A stretch of DNA of 64,000 nucleotides from Bacteroidales bacterium (GTDB taxonomy: Bacteria > Bacteroidota > Bacteroidia > Bacteroidales > UBA3663): the NCBI GenBank assembly GCA_017561935.1, contig JAFZBE010000041.1, forward strand, positions 26,487-90,486. Reading direction: 5' to 3'. The notes below the pieces were generated by a model, which worked only from the letters and a program-made list of their open reading frames with translations, was not told the DNA's origin and did not search any database. Both the position numbers and the translations under genes were made by a program. Below, in pieces: positions 4,363-9,082 of this stretch (position 1 is its first letter; every line of letters starts with the position of its first letter).

Positions 4363-4815
4363 ATGAAAAGACTAAAGAAGAAAGAGATGGAGCAGATGTT
4401 GCTCGCAAACCATTGGGTGCGACATGAAGACTGTGACAACCGGGATTTGGGGTGGCAGGAACTCACGGAAGCATTACTGCATAGTGAACAGCTGGAAGCA
4501 TTATATCTGCACTATGTTTCACCAACACCCTCCCAATTGAAGGCATTGCTCTCCATGCGTCCCACTTACCGCAAGCGGTTCATGGTCTGTCATCTCATTA
4601 TGAACACTATACGCAAAGGACAGCTTGAAGAACTCGCCTCCGAACTCGAAGATGATAACTTCCGAATTTGCGACCAGTGCGGACTCCCGCATATCCATGG
4701 CTACATTATAGGCGACTGCGAACATTACTGCACGCAATATTGCCTCGTAGAAGCAGGCTTCAGCGAAGCAGACATCGATGGTGAGGATAATTACTTTACG
4801 GAGTATGGGAGGTGA
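4363..4815 (+). CDS. Hypothetical protein with C-terminal Cys cluster (possible Zn-binding)
   Basis: 150-aa ORF with CDQC...YCTQYC motif; TATCTTTG at 4325. Confidence 0.65.
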   Translation: MKRLKKKEMEQMLLANHWVRHEDCDNRDLGWQELTEALLHSEQLEALYLHYVSPTPSQLKALLSMRPTYRKRFMVCHLIMNTIRKGQLEELASELEDDNFRICDQCGLPHIHGYIIGDCEHYCTQYCLVEAGFSEADIDGEDNYFTEYGR

Positions 4816-4818
4816 GAA

Positions 4819-5055
4819 TCAATCGAACCTAAGCCAACGGCAACCTGCATAATCTTCAAGGAATTCTGTTTCAGTGTACCAGTCATATTCATTGTTTCGA
4901 GTGTGACCTATCAATTGGCTTTTCGAGTCGAACACAAGCCAATGAGTTGAAGTAAGGAACCCACCAGCAAGCCACAGGTTATATTCATGTACATGATTGG
5001 CGTCATTCTTTAGGTTTTCGAGCATCTGCTCAGTAGTAATCCATTTCTTTTCCAT
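4819..5055 (-). CDS. Small hypothetical protein
   Basis: 78-aa ORF convergent with the previous gene, A-rich sequence before the ATG, promoter-like TATATTTG just upstream on the minus strand. Confidence 0.6.
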   Translation of the reverse strand: MEKKWITTEQMLENLKNDANHVHEYNLWLAGGFLTSTHWLVFDSKSQLIGHTRNNEYDWYTETEFLEDYAGCRWLRFD

Positions 5056-5183
5056 AGTTTTTTCGGCAAATATAAGCGAATTAGTCGAGACTAAAAAATA
5101 TATTTGATCTATTTAGATCAGTTTTAGAATCTTTAGATCTCAATTCGATCTATTTTAACTCATGGGGCACTTTTAATGTACAC

Positions 5184-5220
5184 AAGCAAGCCATCTGAAA
5201 AGTATCGGCTTGCTTTTTTT
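5184..5220 (+). terminator. Terminator-like hairpin upstream of the 5250 promoter
   Basis: AAGCAAGCC...GGCTTGCTT followed by a T run. Confidence 0.6.
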
Positions 5221-5249
5221 CGTCCAAATTAGAAAAAAGAGGGAAAAGA

Positions 5250-5281
5250 TTTGGTGGTTTCAAAGAAAAGACCTATATTTG
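5250..5281 (+). promoter_or_regulatory. Bacteroidetes primary-sigma promoter
   Basis: TTTG (5250-5253), 20-nt spacer, TATATTTG (5274-5281): the canonical -33/-7 consensus. Confidence 0.75.
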
Positions 5282-5286
5282 CACCG

Positions 5287-5943
5287 GATAATTTATTTCC
5301 AATGCCCCTAAGGGAGTGCAGTATGACTGCCAGCGGGACATGACTTTGGAATCAGATTCCTCATAGTCGAACGACATAACATACTGGCCGCATTGACTAT
5401 TATTTTACGTTCACCGGAAAAGCCTAGGAAACTCATTCGGAATAATCGACGCCAAGAATAATGGTTGGTAGCCTTGGAAAGACGACTTTGCCCTAAAGAG
5501 TGAAGTCTGTCGTACGGTTGCCTTCTCGTTGCTAAAATAAAAGTTGATGCCCATCCTCCTCTGTGGAGTATGGGTTTTCAATTTTTTATTGCAACGAAGG
5601 GTTCCGTCCTAGGCTGCCTGGGTGGGCGAATAAAAAGTTGGAGATTCATGCTTCACTTTTATTATGTCCGTACTAGAGCTATTCTATCGATACTATGTAT
5701 TTTCATAGTCCTTGAAGAACATGTGATAAGGTTGATGCATTGCTAGAATTACATATAAGATGTAACATCGACCTATGTATATAGAAACACATTGTGCCAA
5801 GGTGGCACTACGCTATCTGGATTATCGAGTAGATGACATTGTCCAACTACTCAATGATCTTGATCCGATCAAACGAGAAACAAAATACTTCGAGCCTCAA
5901 ATAGGTTTTAGATCATAGATCTGCCTGTTTGAGGCTTTTTTTT
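5287..5943 (+). ncRNA. Putative large structured RNA or long cis-regulatory leader
   Basis: No ORF of 60 aa or more; about ten nested or serial inverted repeats; bounded by a consensus promoter and an intrinsic terminator. Confidence 0.55.
5893..5943 (+). terminator. Intrinsic terminator 25 nt upstream of the methyltransferase start
   Basis: AGCCTCAAATAGG / CCTGTTTGAGGCT stem followed by T8. Confidence 0.75.
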
Positions 5944-5968
5944 GTTCTTATAATACCAAAAGAAGGAA

Positions 5969-6895
5969 ATGGCAAAACCGTTTATAAAGTGGGTAGGTGG
6001 AAAAAGCCAGCTCATCCCTCAACTTGAGGCATTGCTTCCATCAAATTTCACTTCATGGCAGAATGTAACTTACATAGAACCATTCATAGGAGGTGGGGCA
6101 ATGTTGTTCTATATGCTTAAAACGCATTCAAACATTACCCGTGCAGTAATCAACGATATAAATGCGGACTTGACAACTTGCTATCTCACTGTGCGTGACC
6201 ATCCCAATGAACTTATCAAGTTATTAAAGCAAATACAAATGCAGTACCATGCATTGCTCGATGAAGATGCGCGTCGTGATTACTATATGGCCATGCGCGA
6301 CCGTTTCAATACCAACTCTCTTGATTCCATCGAGAATACCTGTCTATTCATCTTCCTTAACCGCACTTGCTTCAATGGACTTTATCGTGTGAATCGAAAA
6401 GGGTTGTTCAATGTGCCTTTTGGAAGATATGACAACCCAATGATTTGTGATACAGAAACAATCCTCAGTGATAGTTTGTTACTTCAAAACGTTGAAATAC
6501 TCACTGGAGATTTCCGTCAAACGATAAACTATGCACAAACTTCCTCACTTTTCTATTTTGACCCTCCCTACAGACCATTGAGCGACACATCAAGCTTTAA
6601 CGATTATTCAAAAGAGGCTTTTGATGATGCAGCTCAAATACGGTTAAAAGAATTCTGTGATGAGGTAAATGCTGCTGGGCATTCTTTCATGCTTAGTAAT
6701 TCCGATCCAAAAGGCAAAAATGGTGACACCTTCTTCGACGACCTCTATTCAGAGTATATTATCGACAGAGTTTGGGCATCAAGGAATGTCAATGCAAATG
6801 CCTCTAAACGAGGAAAGTTAACAGAGATTTTAGTACATAACTATGTAGTTCATCCTACATTCAGTGAAGATTTATTTCCAGATTTAAATATTTAA
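5969..6895 (+). CDS. dam: Dam-family (D12) adenine methyltransferase, DpnM/M.MboIA-like, GATC-specific
   Basis: KWVGGKSQL, EPFIGGGA, FNGLYRVN.KG.FNVPFGRY and DPPY motifs. Confidence 0.95.
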   Translation: MAKPFIKWVGGKSQLIPQLEALLPSNFTSWQNVTYIEPFIGGGAMLFYMLKTHSNITRAVINDINADLTTCYLTVRDHPNELIKLLKQIQMQYHALLDEDARRDYYMAMRDRFNTNSLDSIENTCLFIFLNRTCFNGLYRVNRKGLFNVPFGRYDNPMICDTETILSDSLLLQNVEILTGDFRQTINYAQTSSLFYFDPPYRPLSDTSSFNDYSKEAFDDAAQIRLKEFCDEVNAAGHSFMLSNSDPKGKNGDTFFDDLYSEYIIDRVWASRNVNANASKRGKLTEILVHNYVVHPTFSEDLFPDLNI

Positions 6896-6908
6896 TAATC
6901 GATATAAA

Positions 6909-7757
6909 ATGAGTGCACACACACAACAGGAATTCAAGACTTTTATGTCTCAATTGCAAACCACAAATCAGTCATTAGATTTCTTTTGTGATTTTGATAA
7001 GATTAGTCAGAATGTACAAGAAATCAAATTAAGTCTATGCACACTTAATAGCCTTATTGGCGCTCAAGATATGCGTGCTGCAGTAGAGGCGATTTGGCGC
7101 CGTGACAAATCTGCATTCAGCGTAATGGATATTCTTATTGCAGTAAGAAGCGAAGGTAAGAAGGCTGTCCTTAATTCCTTGAATAAATGTGTCATCTTAG
7201 ATTCTTTGTTCGCATCTGTTGATGGCGTTATGGAATTTCTTGAAAACACGGGCCTTAAGGAAATCTTTCAAAAGCAAAAGATTAAGAATCTTGTCGATTA
7301 TGTTTTTGGCATAGAAACAGGTTTAGATTCTAATGCTCGCAAGAATCGTAGTGGGCACGTCATGGAAAATGTAATCGATAATTTATTAACACAAAATGGC
7401 ATCATACACAGAAAGGAAATTTTTTCTAGTGAATGGCCTAAATTATCTCACGAACTGGGCAGTGACGAAAAAAGATTTGACTTCGTAGTAGAAACGAAAC
7501 AAAAGGTATATTTAATAGAAGTAAATTTTTATAGTGGTGGAGGTTCTAAGTTGAACGAAGTCGCACGTTCTTATTCTGATTTAGCACCTAAAATTAATTC
7601 AGTTGCAGGATTTGAATTTGTTTGGATTACAGATGGTATTGGATGGCTATCAGCTAAGAATAAGTTGGAAGAGGCATATTATAACATACCAAAGGTCTAT
7701 AACCTTACCGATATTAAAGAATTCATTCAAATAGTTAAAACTGAAGGGCAGAACTAA
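6909..7757 (+). CDS. DpnII/MboI-family type II restriction endonuclease
   Basis: DYVFGIETGLDSNARKNRSG, EVNFYSGGGSKLNEVAR and FVWITDG.GW motifs. Confidence 0.92.
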   Translation: MSAHTQQEFKTFMSQLQTTNQSLDFFCDFDKISQNVQEIKLSLCTLNSLIGAQDMRAAVEAIWRRDKSAFSVMDILIAVRSEGKKAVLNSLNKCVILDSLFASVDGVMEFLENTGLKEIFQKQKIKNLVDYVFGIETGLDSNARKNRSGHVMENVIDNLLTQNGIIHRKEIFSSEWPKLSHELGSDEKRFDFVVETKQKVYLIEVNFYSGGGSKLNEVARSYSDLAPKINSVAGFEFVWITDGIGWLSAKNKLEEAYYNIPKVYNLTDIKEFIQIVKTEGQN

Positions 7758-7881
7758 AGATTAAAAGACAAAGCATAAAATGTTGATTGGGAAAGTAATT
7801 TCCAAAATACAGTTATTGATTTAGATAAATACAATAGCATAGAATTAGCAAAAACTTGTCGATACAGAATAATAACATAAT

Positions 7882-8772
7882 ATGATAACCTCAGTATATA
7901 AATCTTCAAACCGAGACTTCACATTGCTGCAAGGCGACTGCACTGAACTCATGCCTCAAATAAAGAACGTGAACTTCAAATTCGACATGATTTTTGCAGA
8001 CCCTCCTTATTTCCTTTCTAACGGAGGCATCTCCGTTCAGTCAGGAAAAGTGGTTTGTGTAGATAAGGGAGATTGGGATAAGGGCGGCTCTCCTGAATAC
8101 ATGAAGGAGTTCAATCATAAATGGCTAAGTTGTTGCAGAGACCTACTTAAAGATAATGGAACCATTTGGATTAGTGGCACCTACCACAATATCTTTAGTG
8201 TAGCTACAGAGCTAACTGAACTTGGATTTAGGATTTTGAATTGTGTTACATGGGCAAAGACCAATCCACCACCAAACATTTCCTGTCGTTTCTTTACTTA
8301 TAGCACAGAGTTCGTTCTTTGGGCACGTAAGAGTCCAAAGAAACCGCATTATTTCAATTATGAACTAATGCGTGCTATCAATGAGGGAAAGCAAATGACG
8401 GACGTTTGGAGCCTACCAGCTATTGCCCCATGGGAAAAATCTTGTGGTAAACATCCAACACAAAAGCCATTATCATTACTAACACGCATTATCCTTGCTT
8501 CAACCAAGGATAATGCCTGGATTCTCGATCCATTCAGTGGAAGCAGTACAACAGGTATAGCAGCAAATTTAACAAATCGTCGTTTCCTGGGCATTGAGCA
8601 AGAACAAGAGTTCATCGACATTAGCATCAAACGTCGAGAGGAACTAGAAGACAACAAAATACGCGGCAACTATCGAAAGAAACTGAATGACCTACAGATC
8701 GCAAAGAAGTTTATTTCCCAAGAAGCCGACATTTCATTTGTCGAGGATGAAGAAATAGATTTGCCTTTCTAA
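7882..8772 (+). CDS. Beta-class DNA methyltransferase, DpnA/M.MboIB-like
   Basis: IFADPPYFLSNGG, GKHPTQKP and LDPFSGSSTTG motifs. Confidence 0.92.
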   Translation: MITSVYKSSNRDFTLLQGDCTELMPQIKNVNFKFDMIFADPPYFLSNGGISVQSGKVVCVDKGDWDKGGSPEYMKEFNHKWLSCCRDLLKDNGTIWISGTYHNIFSVATELTELGFRILNCVTWAKTNPPPNISCRFFTYSTEFVLWARKSPKKPHYFNYELMRAINEGKQMTDVWSLPAIAPWEKSCGKHPTQKPLSLLTRIILASTKDNAWILDPFSGSSTTGIAANLTNRRFLGIEQEQEFIDISIKRREELEDNKIRGNYRKKLNDLQIAKKFISQEADISFVEDEEIDLPF

Positions 8773-8905
8773 TAGTTATAATAAAACGAATTAGGCAGAC
8801 TTGCCATTGAGTGAGGCTGCCTTTCGTATATTTAATCGAATTATAATGTTAAATAATGATAAAAGGTTCTATCTTCCAATTATTCTTTGTATCTTCGCAC
8901 CCGAT

Positions 8906-9082
8906 ATGAAATACAAAGTTACAATACGTGAAACATTAGAGCGCACATTGGATGTAGAGGCAAACTCTGCTCAAGAAGCAGAGTTGTCTGTTCGTCAGGA
9001 CTACCACAATAGTATCATCGTGCTCGACGATGGCGACTTTATTGATACAATAATCATGGTTCAACAATTAACCTGCAAATAA
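8906..9082 (+). CDS. DpnD/PcfM-like small protein
   Basis: MKYKVTIRETLERTLDVEANSAQEA...Y...IVLDDGDF fits the DpnD/PcfM pattern; promoter-like TATCTTCG at about 8890. Confidence 0.7.
   Translation: MKYKVTIRETLERTLDVEANSAQEAELSVRQDYHNSIIVLDDGDFIDTIIMVQQLTCK

Follow-up and report, generated by a model that had tools for sequence, protein, structure and literature searches.

The DNA considered here (the window) is a stretch of 64,000 nucleotides (nt) from a Bacteroidales bacterium (assembly GCA_017561935.1, contig JAFZBE010000041.1, positions 26,487 to 90,486). Between a Bacteroidetes-type promoter and a DpnII-type GATC restriction-modification (R-M) cassette it carries a densely paired segment, for which an earlier note, made from the letters alone, had offered two explanations: a novel large non-coding RNA (ncRNA) travelling with a defence island, or a giant leader gating the R-M operon by antitermination. 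In the best reading of the present analysis, 5288–5943 is transcribed from its own promoter and is a long variant of a conserved Bacteroidales leader family, most members of which stand before R-M genes. The parts of the window copy are the following (window coordinates).

5250–5253 (TTTG, −33) and 5274–5281 (TATATTTG, −7), + strand: motif positions of the Bacteroidetes-type promoter; the transcription start would lie near 5288.
5300–5389, + strand: variant-specific 5' accessory domain with the closing helix CAATGC (5300–5305)/GCATTG (5390–5395) and the helices CAGTATG (5319)/CATACTG (5380) and GGAATC (5348)/GATTCC (5355).
5390–5406, + strand: conserved 5' segment S1, GCAUUGACUAUUAUUUU; 5399–5405 would take part in a pseudoknot, and the whole segment is complementary to X.
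5408–5415, + strand: 5' strand of P2, CGUUCACC, partner 5621–5628.
5421–5615, + strand: core domain P3–P3', comprising P3, P4, the junction strands AUAAUCGAC..AAUAAUGGUUGG, the P5 region and the long P6 hairpin.
5457–5468, + strand: J4/5 strand, AAUAAUGGUUGG; 5457–5462 is the predicted pseudoknot partner of 5399–5405.
5621–5628, + strand: 3' strand of P2, GGUGGGCG.
5629–5663, + strand: T hairpin, AAUAAAAAGU ... ACUUUUAUU, with a purine-rich 5' arm and a U-rich 3' arm; 89.3% of cells are paired.
5692–5709, + strand: small linker hairpin, from the fold.
5725–5738, + strand: X, the S1-complementary segment, GAUAAGGUUGAUGC, overlapping the 5' arm of H2 and covering 9 of its 15 bases.
5729–5774, + strand: H2 platform hairpin, ending at −1 of the ATG at 5775 (gap 0).
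5775–5918, + strand: open reading frame (ORF) of 47 codons at the site where the R-M gene starts in other members; it contains the hairpins 5794–5808 and 5827–5852 and three GATC sites.
5892–5943, + strand: intrinsic terminator of −27.3 kcal/mol with a U8 tract after it; its apical part contains two GATC sites.

The dense pairing claimed earlier is present. The minimum free energy (MFE) of 5285–5945 on the + strand is −214.2 kcal/mol, against −162.9 ± 7.3 kcal/mol for 20 dinucleotide shuffles (z −7.03), none of which folds as well. Every helix that the earlier note named occurs in its place: the accessory helices, the helix AGCCTAGGA (5421)/TCCTAGGCT (5607) closing a multibranch domain, the long hairpin TCGTTGC (5526)/GCAACGA (5591), the five serial hairpins from 5629–5663 to 5827–5852 and the terminator. 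The last of these is longer than a simple terminator scan permits and was missed by it; 25 nt separate it from the ATG of the methyltransferase gene dpnM at 5969, as had been said. The promoter was likewise found again; the consensus applied to 5250–5281 is taken here, from the literature, to be that of Bacteroidetes, and a sigma-70 promoter scan gave nothing relevant at the leader. A motif scan of 5282–5968 revealed no further consensus promoter, in agreement with the earlier reading.

The core 5390–5668 belongs to a family found in 83 places, almost all of them in Bacteroidales. BLAST against relatives gave one full-length copy (L002, 93% identical) and, in several others, seemingly partial matches to 5389–5481, at loci that in fact contain the two halves of one architecture, with sequence changes that compensate each other. 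A degenerate pattern (International Union of Pure and Applied Chemistry code) was made from two conserved strands and scanned over one genome per prokaryotic species, which returned 75 loci. Two of them, in a Microthrix record and a deltaproteobacterial record, were rejected as chance matches, having none of the flanking motifs. A further one comes from a 2-kb contig that had been binned as Lachnospiraceae, and the remaining loci are all from Bacteroidales of horse, sheep, cattle and human gut, with carriers including Prevotella, Alloprevotella, Segatella copri, Mediterranea, Paludibacteraceae, Salinivirgaceae and several Candidatus genera.

The covariance model R1 covers the closed P3–P3' domain in 158 positions and was built from 33 sequences; S1, P2, T and H2 lie outside it and were analysed with scripts and MAFFT columns. 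Its search of 90 sources gave 83 matches, including 72 of the 75 pattern loci and neither of the chance loci, and the window is matched at 5421–5615 with 58.8 bits (E 1.2e-11). Typical members are 5' leaders of roughly 250–330 nt. The window's own genome has one copy, and 19 of the 39 genomes of its genus carry the family, with up to five copies each. A sample of the order (one genome per genus, stricter filters) contained it in 4 of 150 other genomes, and a phylum-wide sample gave one other match, in the same order. A pattern scan of viral contigs and a blastn search of plasmids returned no match. Since many of the genomes are incomplete metagenome-assembled genomes (MAGs), these counts mean 'not found in the genomes searched' and not absence. 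At unrelated loci of relatives, L008–L012 and L014–L016 match only the first 35–55 nt of the query (promoter region 5250–5300); such matches are probably due to the promoter consensus common to Bacteroidetes, not to the RNA.

Covariation among homologues, which the earlier note had named as a check, was counted for 49 pairs in a model-based alignment of 82 distinct sequences. Standard pairs occupy 89.6% of cells, against 70.0% with shuffled partners (0 of 500 shuffles as high) and 40–45% with partners slid by 1–3 columns. Two-sided changes are seen at 41 of the 49 pairs (30.2 shuffled, 18–26 slid by 1–3 columns), and the covariation score is 0.530 (0.193 shuffled, 0.05–0.08 slid). P4, for instance, has four pairs, each with four to five pair types. 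An alignment fitted to a model favours structure, and the sequences are related to each other; despite this the margin over both controls is large, and on these alignments the RNA structure is judged to be under selection.

The same data bear on the explanation that the element acts as DNA, for example as a site of recombination or integration or as a mobile-element end, with inverted repeats that only mimic RNA helices. Its patchy, island-like spread (19 of 39 genomes of the genus, 4 of 150 others in the order sample) and the differing R-M cargos after the same sequence could be understood in this way. However, many conserved pairs are G-U (UG in 40 of 79 and GU in 58 of 81 sequences at single pairs), which is possible on the + strand only, and the + strand folds better than the opposite one (z −7.0 against −4.47); together these point to a + strand RNA and not to a DNA repeat. 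Terminal repeats do not give nested multi-helix covariation with a junction, and viral contigs and plasmids held no match. A DNA-level role is therefore very improbable.

In the best reading the conserved part consists of S1, a stacked P2–P3–P4 stem opening to a junction with P5 and the long P6, a pseudoknot, T and H2; conserved purine-rich single strands are carried by the junction. P2, being outside the covariance model, was tested by partner swapping: own partners pair with −18.3 kcal/mol, against −9.9 kcal/mol for cross-subtype partners and a mean of −10.7 ± 0.45 kcal/mol over 200 permutations, the own partner being better in 76 of 76 sequences. The pseudoknot between S1 and the junction, AUYAUU (5399–5405) with AAURRU (5457–5462), is paired in 99.8% of cells in 76 sequences, and one of its pairs occurs as CG in 32, UA in 32 and UG in 12 of them, with zero mismatches. 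From these columns the pseudoknot is likely but not proven, because a single pair covaries. The T hairpin, found family-wide 3' of P2, has the form (C)GCAUAAGAAGG-loop-CCUUUUURUGC(G).

Two further elements were considered and not kept. A closing helix P1, in which S1 would pair with the T loop (GCAUUGAC/GUUCAUGC), has two of its seven pairs mismatched in about half of 76 sequences. A leader peptide beginning with the conserved RUG that follows the U-run was dropped, RNAalifold pairing RUGC with the GCAU of GCAUAAG at the base of the T hairpin. The 5' accessory domain is common only to the window, L002/L039 and L004/L085. Its closing helix takes the first six bases of S1 and in L085 reads CCATGT/ACATTG, which amounts to one compensatory change.

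The genes following the family were surveyed at 76 distinct loci, 73 of which have the first downstream ORF within the fetched DNA (Pfam, E ≤ 1e-4). This ORF encodes a DNA methyltransferase (MTase) or an R-M nuclease or helicase in 49 of the 73: N6_N4/type III Mod (10), EcoRI-type methylase (8), MmeI-type (8), PLD/SNF2/ResIII helicase-nucleases (8), D12 Dam-like (6), HsdM (4), other N6_Mtase fusions (3) and C5 methylase (2). Seven more encode a conserved protein of 216–235 amino acids (aa) with weak MTase-like matches, under curated cut-offs. The other 17 are not R-M genes (sulfatase, GT2, LRR_5 twice, SPFH twice, Sel1, WYL-WCX, MBOAT, DUF805 and seven without match), and many of them begin more than 200 nt downstream. 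The nearest upstream ORF on either strand, taken as a control at 70 loci, contains an MTase or R-M domain in none; upstream neighbours are toxins of toxin-antitoxin systems, Abi_2 or housekeeping genes, e.g. for RecA and peptidyl-tRNA hydrolase.

Through the covariance model seven distant members were found in four genomes of other genera, and six of them precede R-M genes: EcoRI-type methylase with GmrSD_N-HNH nuclease (three times), Tsp45I endonuclease with MTase, ResIII-HNH helicase and a small MTase-like protein (once each). The seventh has a broken PLD-SNF2 ORF downstream. The association of the leader with R-M genes is strong and directional and extends across R-M types. An uncatalogued RNA family directly 5' of so many different R-M genes probably controls their expression.

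Several observations concern these neighbourhoods. The 216–235-aa protein (N-terminus ..QVKSRERVxxHGEVFT..REVNAML..) stands 3' of the leader at L045, L058, L080, L086, L087, L091, L093 and L118; its matches, all weak and below threshold, are to MmeI_Mtase, MAD2 and Alw26I-type MTase N-termini, and either a short protein resembling MTases or a split gene may be present. Toxins of toxin-antitoxin systems (YoeB, ParE, YafQ), DUF4160 or an Abi_2 fragment often lie directly 5' of the leader (L041, L035, L037, L069, L086, L076), which is consistent with an island context. At L114 (G157:C7:45600-56500) two members of different subtypes, 7 kb apart on one contig, precede the Tsp45I-MTase genes and the broken PLD-SNF2 ORF, with an AAA_14/DUF4143 ATPase gene between them; this looks like a defence island reusing the leader.

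The arrangement at the start codon suggests how such control could be realized. A linker of 40–100 nt separates the T hairpin from H2, and in 55 of 61 leaders the distance between the end of H2 and the start codon is at most 6 nt (median 1 nt). In the family H2 is not followed by a U-tract, and typical leaders run into the start codon without a terminator, so that gating is likelier at translation initiation than by antitermination. The H2 arms differ widely among subtypes. Loop lengths vary, so that no consensus hairpin emerged when the platform region was aligned with MAFFT. About half of the loci have a TAnnTTTG box 46–125 nt 5' of S1, with an A-rich conserved linker in between.

X consists of the H2 5' arm and part of the loop, is complementary to S1 over 14–16 nt and has the typical form ..GUGAUAGAUUGAUGC..; it overlaps the H2 5' arm by at least 4 nt in 49 of 61 leaders. 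The duplex of S1 with its own tail has a mean energy of −13.40 kcal/mol. With dinucleotide-shuffled tails the mean is −8.11 kcal/mol, and the own tail pairs better in 57 of 61 leaders; with reversed S1 it is −9.28 kcal/mol, and the own S1 pairs better in 51 of 61. The S1:X helix is present both in the RNAalifold structure of 14 full leaders and in the unconstrained MFE structure of window 5390–5790. Since S1 supplies a pseudoknot strand and also pairs with X, there is competition among three pairings, namely S1–junction, S1–X and X–H2 3' arm.

According to the proposed mechanism, S1 would be held either in the core, as part of the pseudoknot, or on X, and its placement would determine if the first R-M gene has its start region sequestered or free. 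Such a sequestor/anti-sequestor platform could provide riboswitch-like control of translation initiation. Bacteroidetes initiate translation at an unstructured mRNA start region without a Shine-Dalgarno sequence, and gating of this kind would suit them because initiation there needs the start region to be open. The best reading of the family is a leader that acts in cis on R-M cassettes and controls their translation in the manner of a riboswitch, to which a probability of roughly 0.55 is given. The family, its covarying structure, its one-directional link to R-M genes, the start-codon hairpin and the complementarity of S1 to X are shown by the analysis; the alternation of the two pairings and their control of translation are inferred.

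Several results weigh against this, and the switch itself is weakly supported. Swapping S1 between subtypes is cheap (−13.40 kcal/mol for own S1, −12.11 kcal/mol for swapped; own better in only 42 of 61), so that S1:X is a conserved complementarity with little covariation. When S1 was blocked in an equilibrium model, the unpaired probability of −14 to +3 went on average only from 0.35 to 0.31; this small effect is a fall in 21 of 61 leaders, a rise in 7 and no change in 33 (Wilcoxon p 0.006). The 17 downstream ORFs outside R-M and the single covarying pair of the pseudoknot count in the same direction. In the window itself the platform adjoins the 47-codon ORF, which has no known relatives, and a terminator separates the leader from dpnM. 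Finally, the contigs from RNA libraries discussed below indicate presence only and prove neither transcription, strand, ends nor a single transcript.

Some of these results could be expected from a constitutive leader without sensing: a compact 5' untranslated region (UTR) that protects the mRNA of horizontally acquired R-M cassettes from decay and might insulate them from the insertion site or fix a low level of translation via H2. The start region is mostly paired in the equilibrium model with S1 free or not, S1:X covaries little, many units have their own promoter, and leader and R-M units adjoin unrelated housekeeping genes (RecA, Pth, FabD-like). Protection, however, needs no conserved junction sequence of about 160 nt, no pseudoknot and no complementarity of S1 over 14–16 nt to the arm of a start-codon hairpin, and a purely constitutive role is considered unlikely.

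The window copy differs from typical members. Together with L002 and L039 it has the 5' accessory domain, an insertion enlarging the P5 region and a 3' extension, and only this variant possesses the terminator. The genes downstream of it are the following.

5969–6895, + strand: D12 Dam-like MTase, dpnM (PF02086, 2.6e-62).
6909–7757, + strand: DpnII endonuclease (PF04556, 4e-99).
7882–8772, + strand: N6_N4 MTase (PF01555, 5.1e-57).
8801–9082, + strand: DpnD/PcfM-like protein (1e-14).

All three defining enzymes are matched, and by these domains 5969–9082 is a DpnII-type GATC R-M cassette. A controller gene was sought in the ORFs 4363–4815 and 4819–5055 and in the 47-codon ORF, none of which matches a helix-turn-helix (HTH) family. 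The 47-codon ORF has no match in Pfam or NCBIfam and no tblastn homologue at other family loci. Compared with L039 it shows 7 differences, 3 synonymous and 4 non-synonymous, several of which are located, as read here, in hairpin loops or turn U-G into C-G in the terminator stem; that they lie in loops or preserve the stem makes coding doubtful.

One of the two explanations in the earlier note was antitermination. It would require a giant transcriptional leader gating the DpnII operon by regulated read-through of the terminator at 5892–5943. The short distance from the terminator to dpnM, the lack of a consensus promoter in 5282–5968 and a contig of run X2 (5734–5978) that crosses the terminator agree with read-through, though this contig is not proof of a single transcript and may come from DNA. 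The best partner of the terminator 5' arm within 5290–5885, however, has −15.0 kcal/mol, against −14.9 ± 2.2 kcal/mol for shuffled arms, and no terminator stands between leader and gene in members other than the window, L002 and L039. Because the arm lacks a partner above chance and the platform lies at the 47-codon ORF and not at dpnM, antitermination control of DpnII is not supported and regulated read-through is improbable. With no antiterminator and no consensus promoter, the DpnII genes might be transcribed by read-through or from an unrecognised promoter.

Contigs from RNA libraries cover the leader in four runs of four studies with 90–95% identity: X7 (5364–5891), X8 (5364–5738), X4 (5396–5666 and 5679–5879) and X2 (5196–5738, 5734–5978 and 5955–6368). 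Runs X4, X7 and X8 have no contig over 5000–5363 or 5893–6400, and such gaps in contig cover prove nothing. The product of the window copy is probably a separate RNA of about 650 nt, and it is uncertain how far this copy is coupled to the DpnII operon.

This copy is best suited to the explanation that the family is a stand-alone, stable and possibly trans-acting ncRNA, whose core would accumulate separately and act on targets elsewhere, and whose proximity to R-M genes would reflect co-mobility and not control in cis. The terminator of −27.3 kcal/mol ends the window RNA before dpnM, the depth in run X4 is 23 on 5396–5666 and 3.3 on 5679–5879 (one figure per contig, a hint only), and at L035 the RNA is followed by a terminator-like hairpin with no gene nearby. 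Against it, most members reach the next start codon without a terminator (at most 6 nt away in 55 of 61), and R-M genes stand strictly on one side (49 of 73 downstream, 0 of 70 upstream). A stand-alone RNA is thus rather unlikely, slightly more so than a constitutive leader.

Among known systems, the leader family taken as a cis-acting translational control element resembles riboswitches and orphan candidates with translational platforms. Like these it carries in the 5' UTR a core that is conserved and covaries and that contains a multi-helix junction and a probable pseudoknot; the region just before the start codon is covered by a hairpin, to whose arm one core strand is complementary. The covarying structured domain and the same-strand 5' UTR position were both found in the family. 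As to the platform, the S1:X energy exceeds that of shuffled tails (−13.40 against −8.11 kcal/mol) and X overlaps the H2 arm in 49 of 61 leaders, with cheap cross-type swaps and a small change in accessibility. The pattern of an attenuator or antiterminator was not found: in the family H2 stands at the AUG without a U-tract, and the window terminator has no antiterminator above chance. Unlike riboswitches, the family precedes R-M enzymes of many types and not metabolic genes or transporters; its core and platform are large (about 330 nt), and Rfam gives no match.

R-M systems are known to be regulated by controller (C) proteins, by MTase autoregulation and by antisense RNAs, each system-specific. 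The presumed purpose, expression control of R-M genes moving between hosts, would be the same here. In contrast to C-protein systems, no gene for an HTH or C protein stands beside the window cassette, and the leader is a sense-strand RNA common to type I, II, IIG/MmeI, III and helicase-nuclease systems.

Large bacterial ncRNAs tied to mobile DNA include GOLLD, ROOL, HEARO/omega RNA, raiA and OLE. The window copy resembles them in its size of about 650 nt, complex structure and patchy, island-like spread. Typical members, however, are leaders of 250–330 nt joined to the start of an ORF, without a transposase, IscB or TnpB neighbour. T-box and ribosomal-protein leaders, large leaders with a macromolecule as binding partner, are similar in size and in an alternative pairing involving a platform hairpin. 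Most T-box leaders act through terminators, whereas the leader family is typically without one; no specifier or T-box sequence was recognised in it. Its proposed mode of action is comparable to that of riboswitch-type or protein-binding leaders with a translational platform.

Rfam 15 (4227 models, including those of riboswitches, T-box, RNase P, tmRNA, group I/II introns, GOLLD, ROOL, OLE, raiA, HEARO and Bacteroidales motifs) gave no cmscan match at gathering thresholds in the 64-kb window, nor in 10 typical family loci; this agrees with the earlier note, which had recognised no tRNA, tmRNA, RNase P or intron signature. In E-value mode the matches are at chance level (best 20.4 bits, threshold 55). 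The Bacteroidales-1, Bacteroides-1, Bacteroides-2 and Bacteroid-trp motifs were described by comparative genomics as structured RNAs of Bacteroidales/Bacteroidetes, and the main text of that work gives no restriction or methyltransferase context (Weinberg et al. 2010, PMC2864571); their Rfam models match neither the window nor the 10 typical members. The R-M-linked candidate HMP2_13141, a 57-nt Rothia motif (PMC8040213, from the parts covered), was rejected as this RNA. Full-text searches, and the covered parts of 10.1101/2020.03.31.018887, PMC2864571 and PMC8040213 with most supplementary files, contained no description of the family; subscription journals lie outside this scope, and an earlier description there is possible.

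The leader is rated as a new RNA family with a new gene association, absent from Rfam. The earlier idea of a novel RNA travelling with a defence island therefore survives in part: the RNA is structured, absent from Rfam and accompanies R-M genes, but it is not a unique 650-nt RNA.

R-M systems are the commonest anti-phage defence, and their expression must be tightly controlled on entering a new host. A further-reaching and tentative proposal is that the family constitutes a new riboswitch-like sensor class, a portable promoter-plus-leader placing type I, II, IIG, III and helicase-nuclease R-M systems under one common signal. Control would be translational, via competition of the core pseudoknot and the start-codon hairpin for S1, and possible signals are methyl-donor status and cues of infection or stress. 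If true, one structured leader over many unrelated R-M types would be a new regulatory layer for defence and for barriers to horizontal transfer in abundant bacteria of gut and rumen, among them Prevotella, Segatella copri, Alloprevotella and Mediterranea. The leader would then also be an orphan sensor RNA with good support, making a direct search for its ligand or partner feasible. The leader could also serve as a practical marker for R-M and defence cassettes in Bacteroidales metagenomes.

The surroundings of the window copy have some features of their own. The two densest 100-nt clusters of GATC in the 64-kb window lie within 900 nt upstream of the DpnII operon (regions 5081–5201 and 5821–5951), with 4 sites at 5106–5147 and 5 sites at 5856–5918, two of the latter in the apical part of the terminator. 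Over the whole window GATC is slightly rarer than base composition predicts (194 sites against 249 expected). The clusters may be methylation-sensitive regulatory DNA of the cassette.

A second promoter-like TATATTTG is located at 5099–5106, the GATC at 5106 overlapping its last base, and a terminator-like hairpin with a T-run, kept in L002 with loop changes, follows at about 5187–5222. Just 5' of the leader promoter, 5099–5222 could thus encode a small RNA of about 105 nt with three further GATC sites. Two ORFs without a convincing Pfam or NCBIfam family adjoin the element, 4819–5055 (− strand, 78 aa) and 4363–4815 (+ strand, 150 aa); L002 conserves the 78-aa ORF, whose promoter region contains the GATC cluster at 5106–5147.

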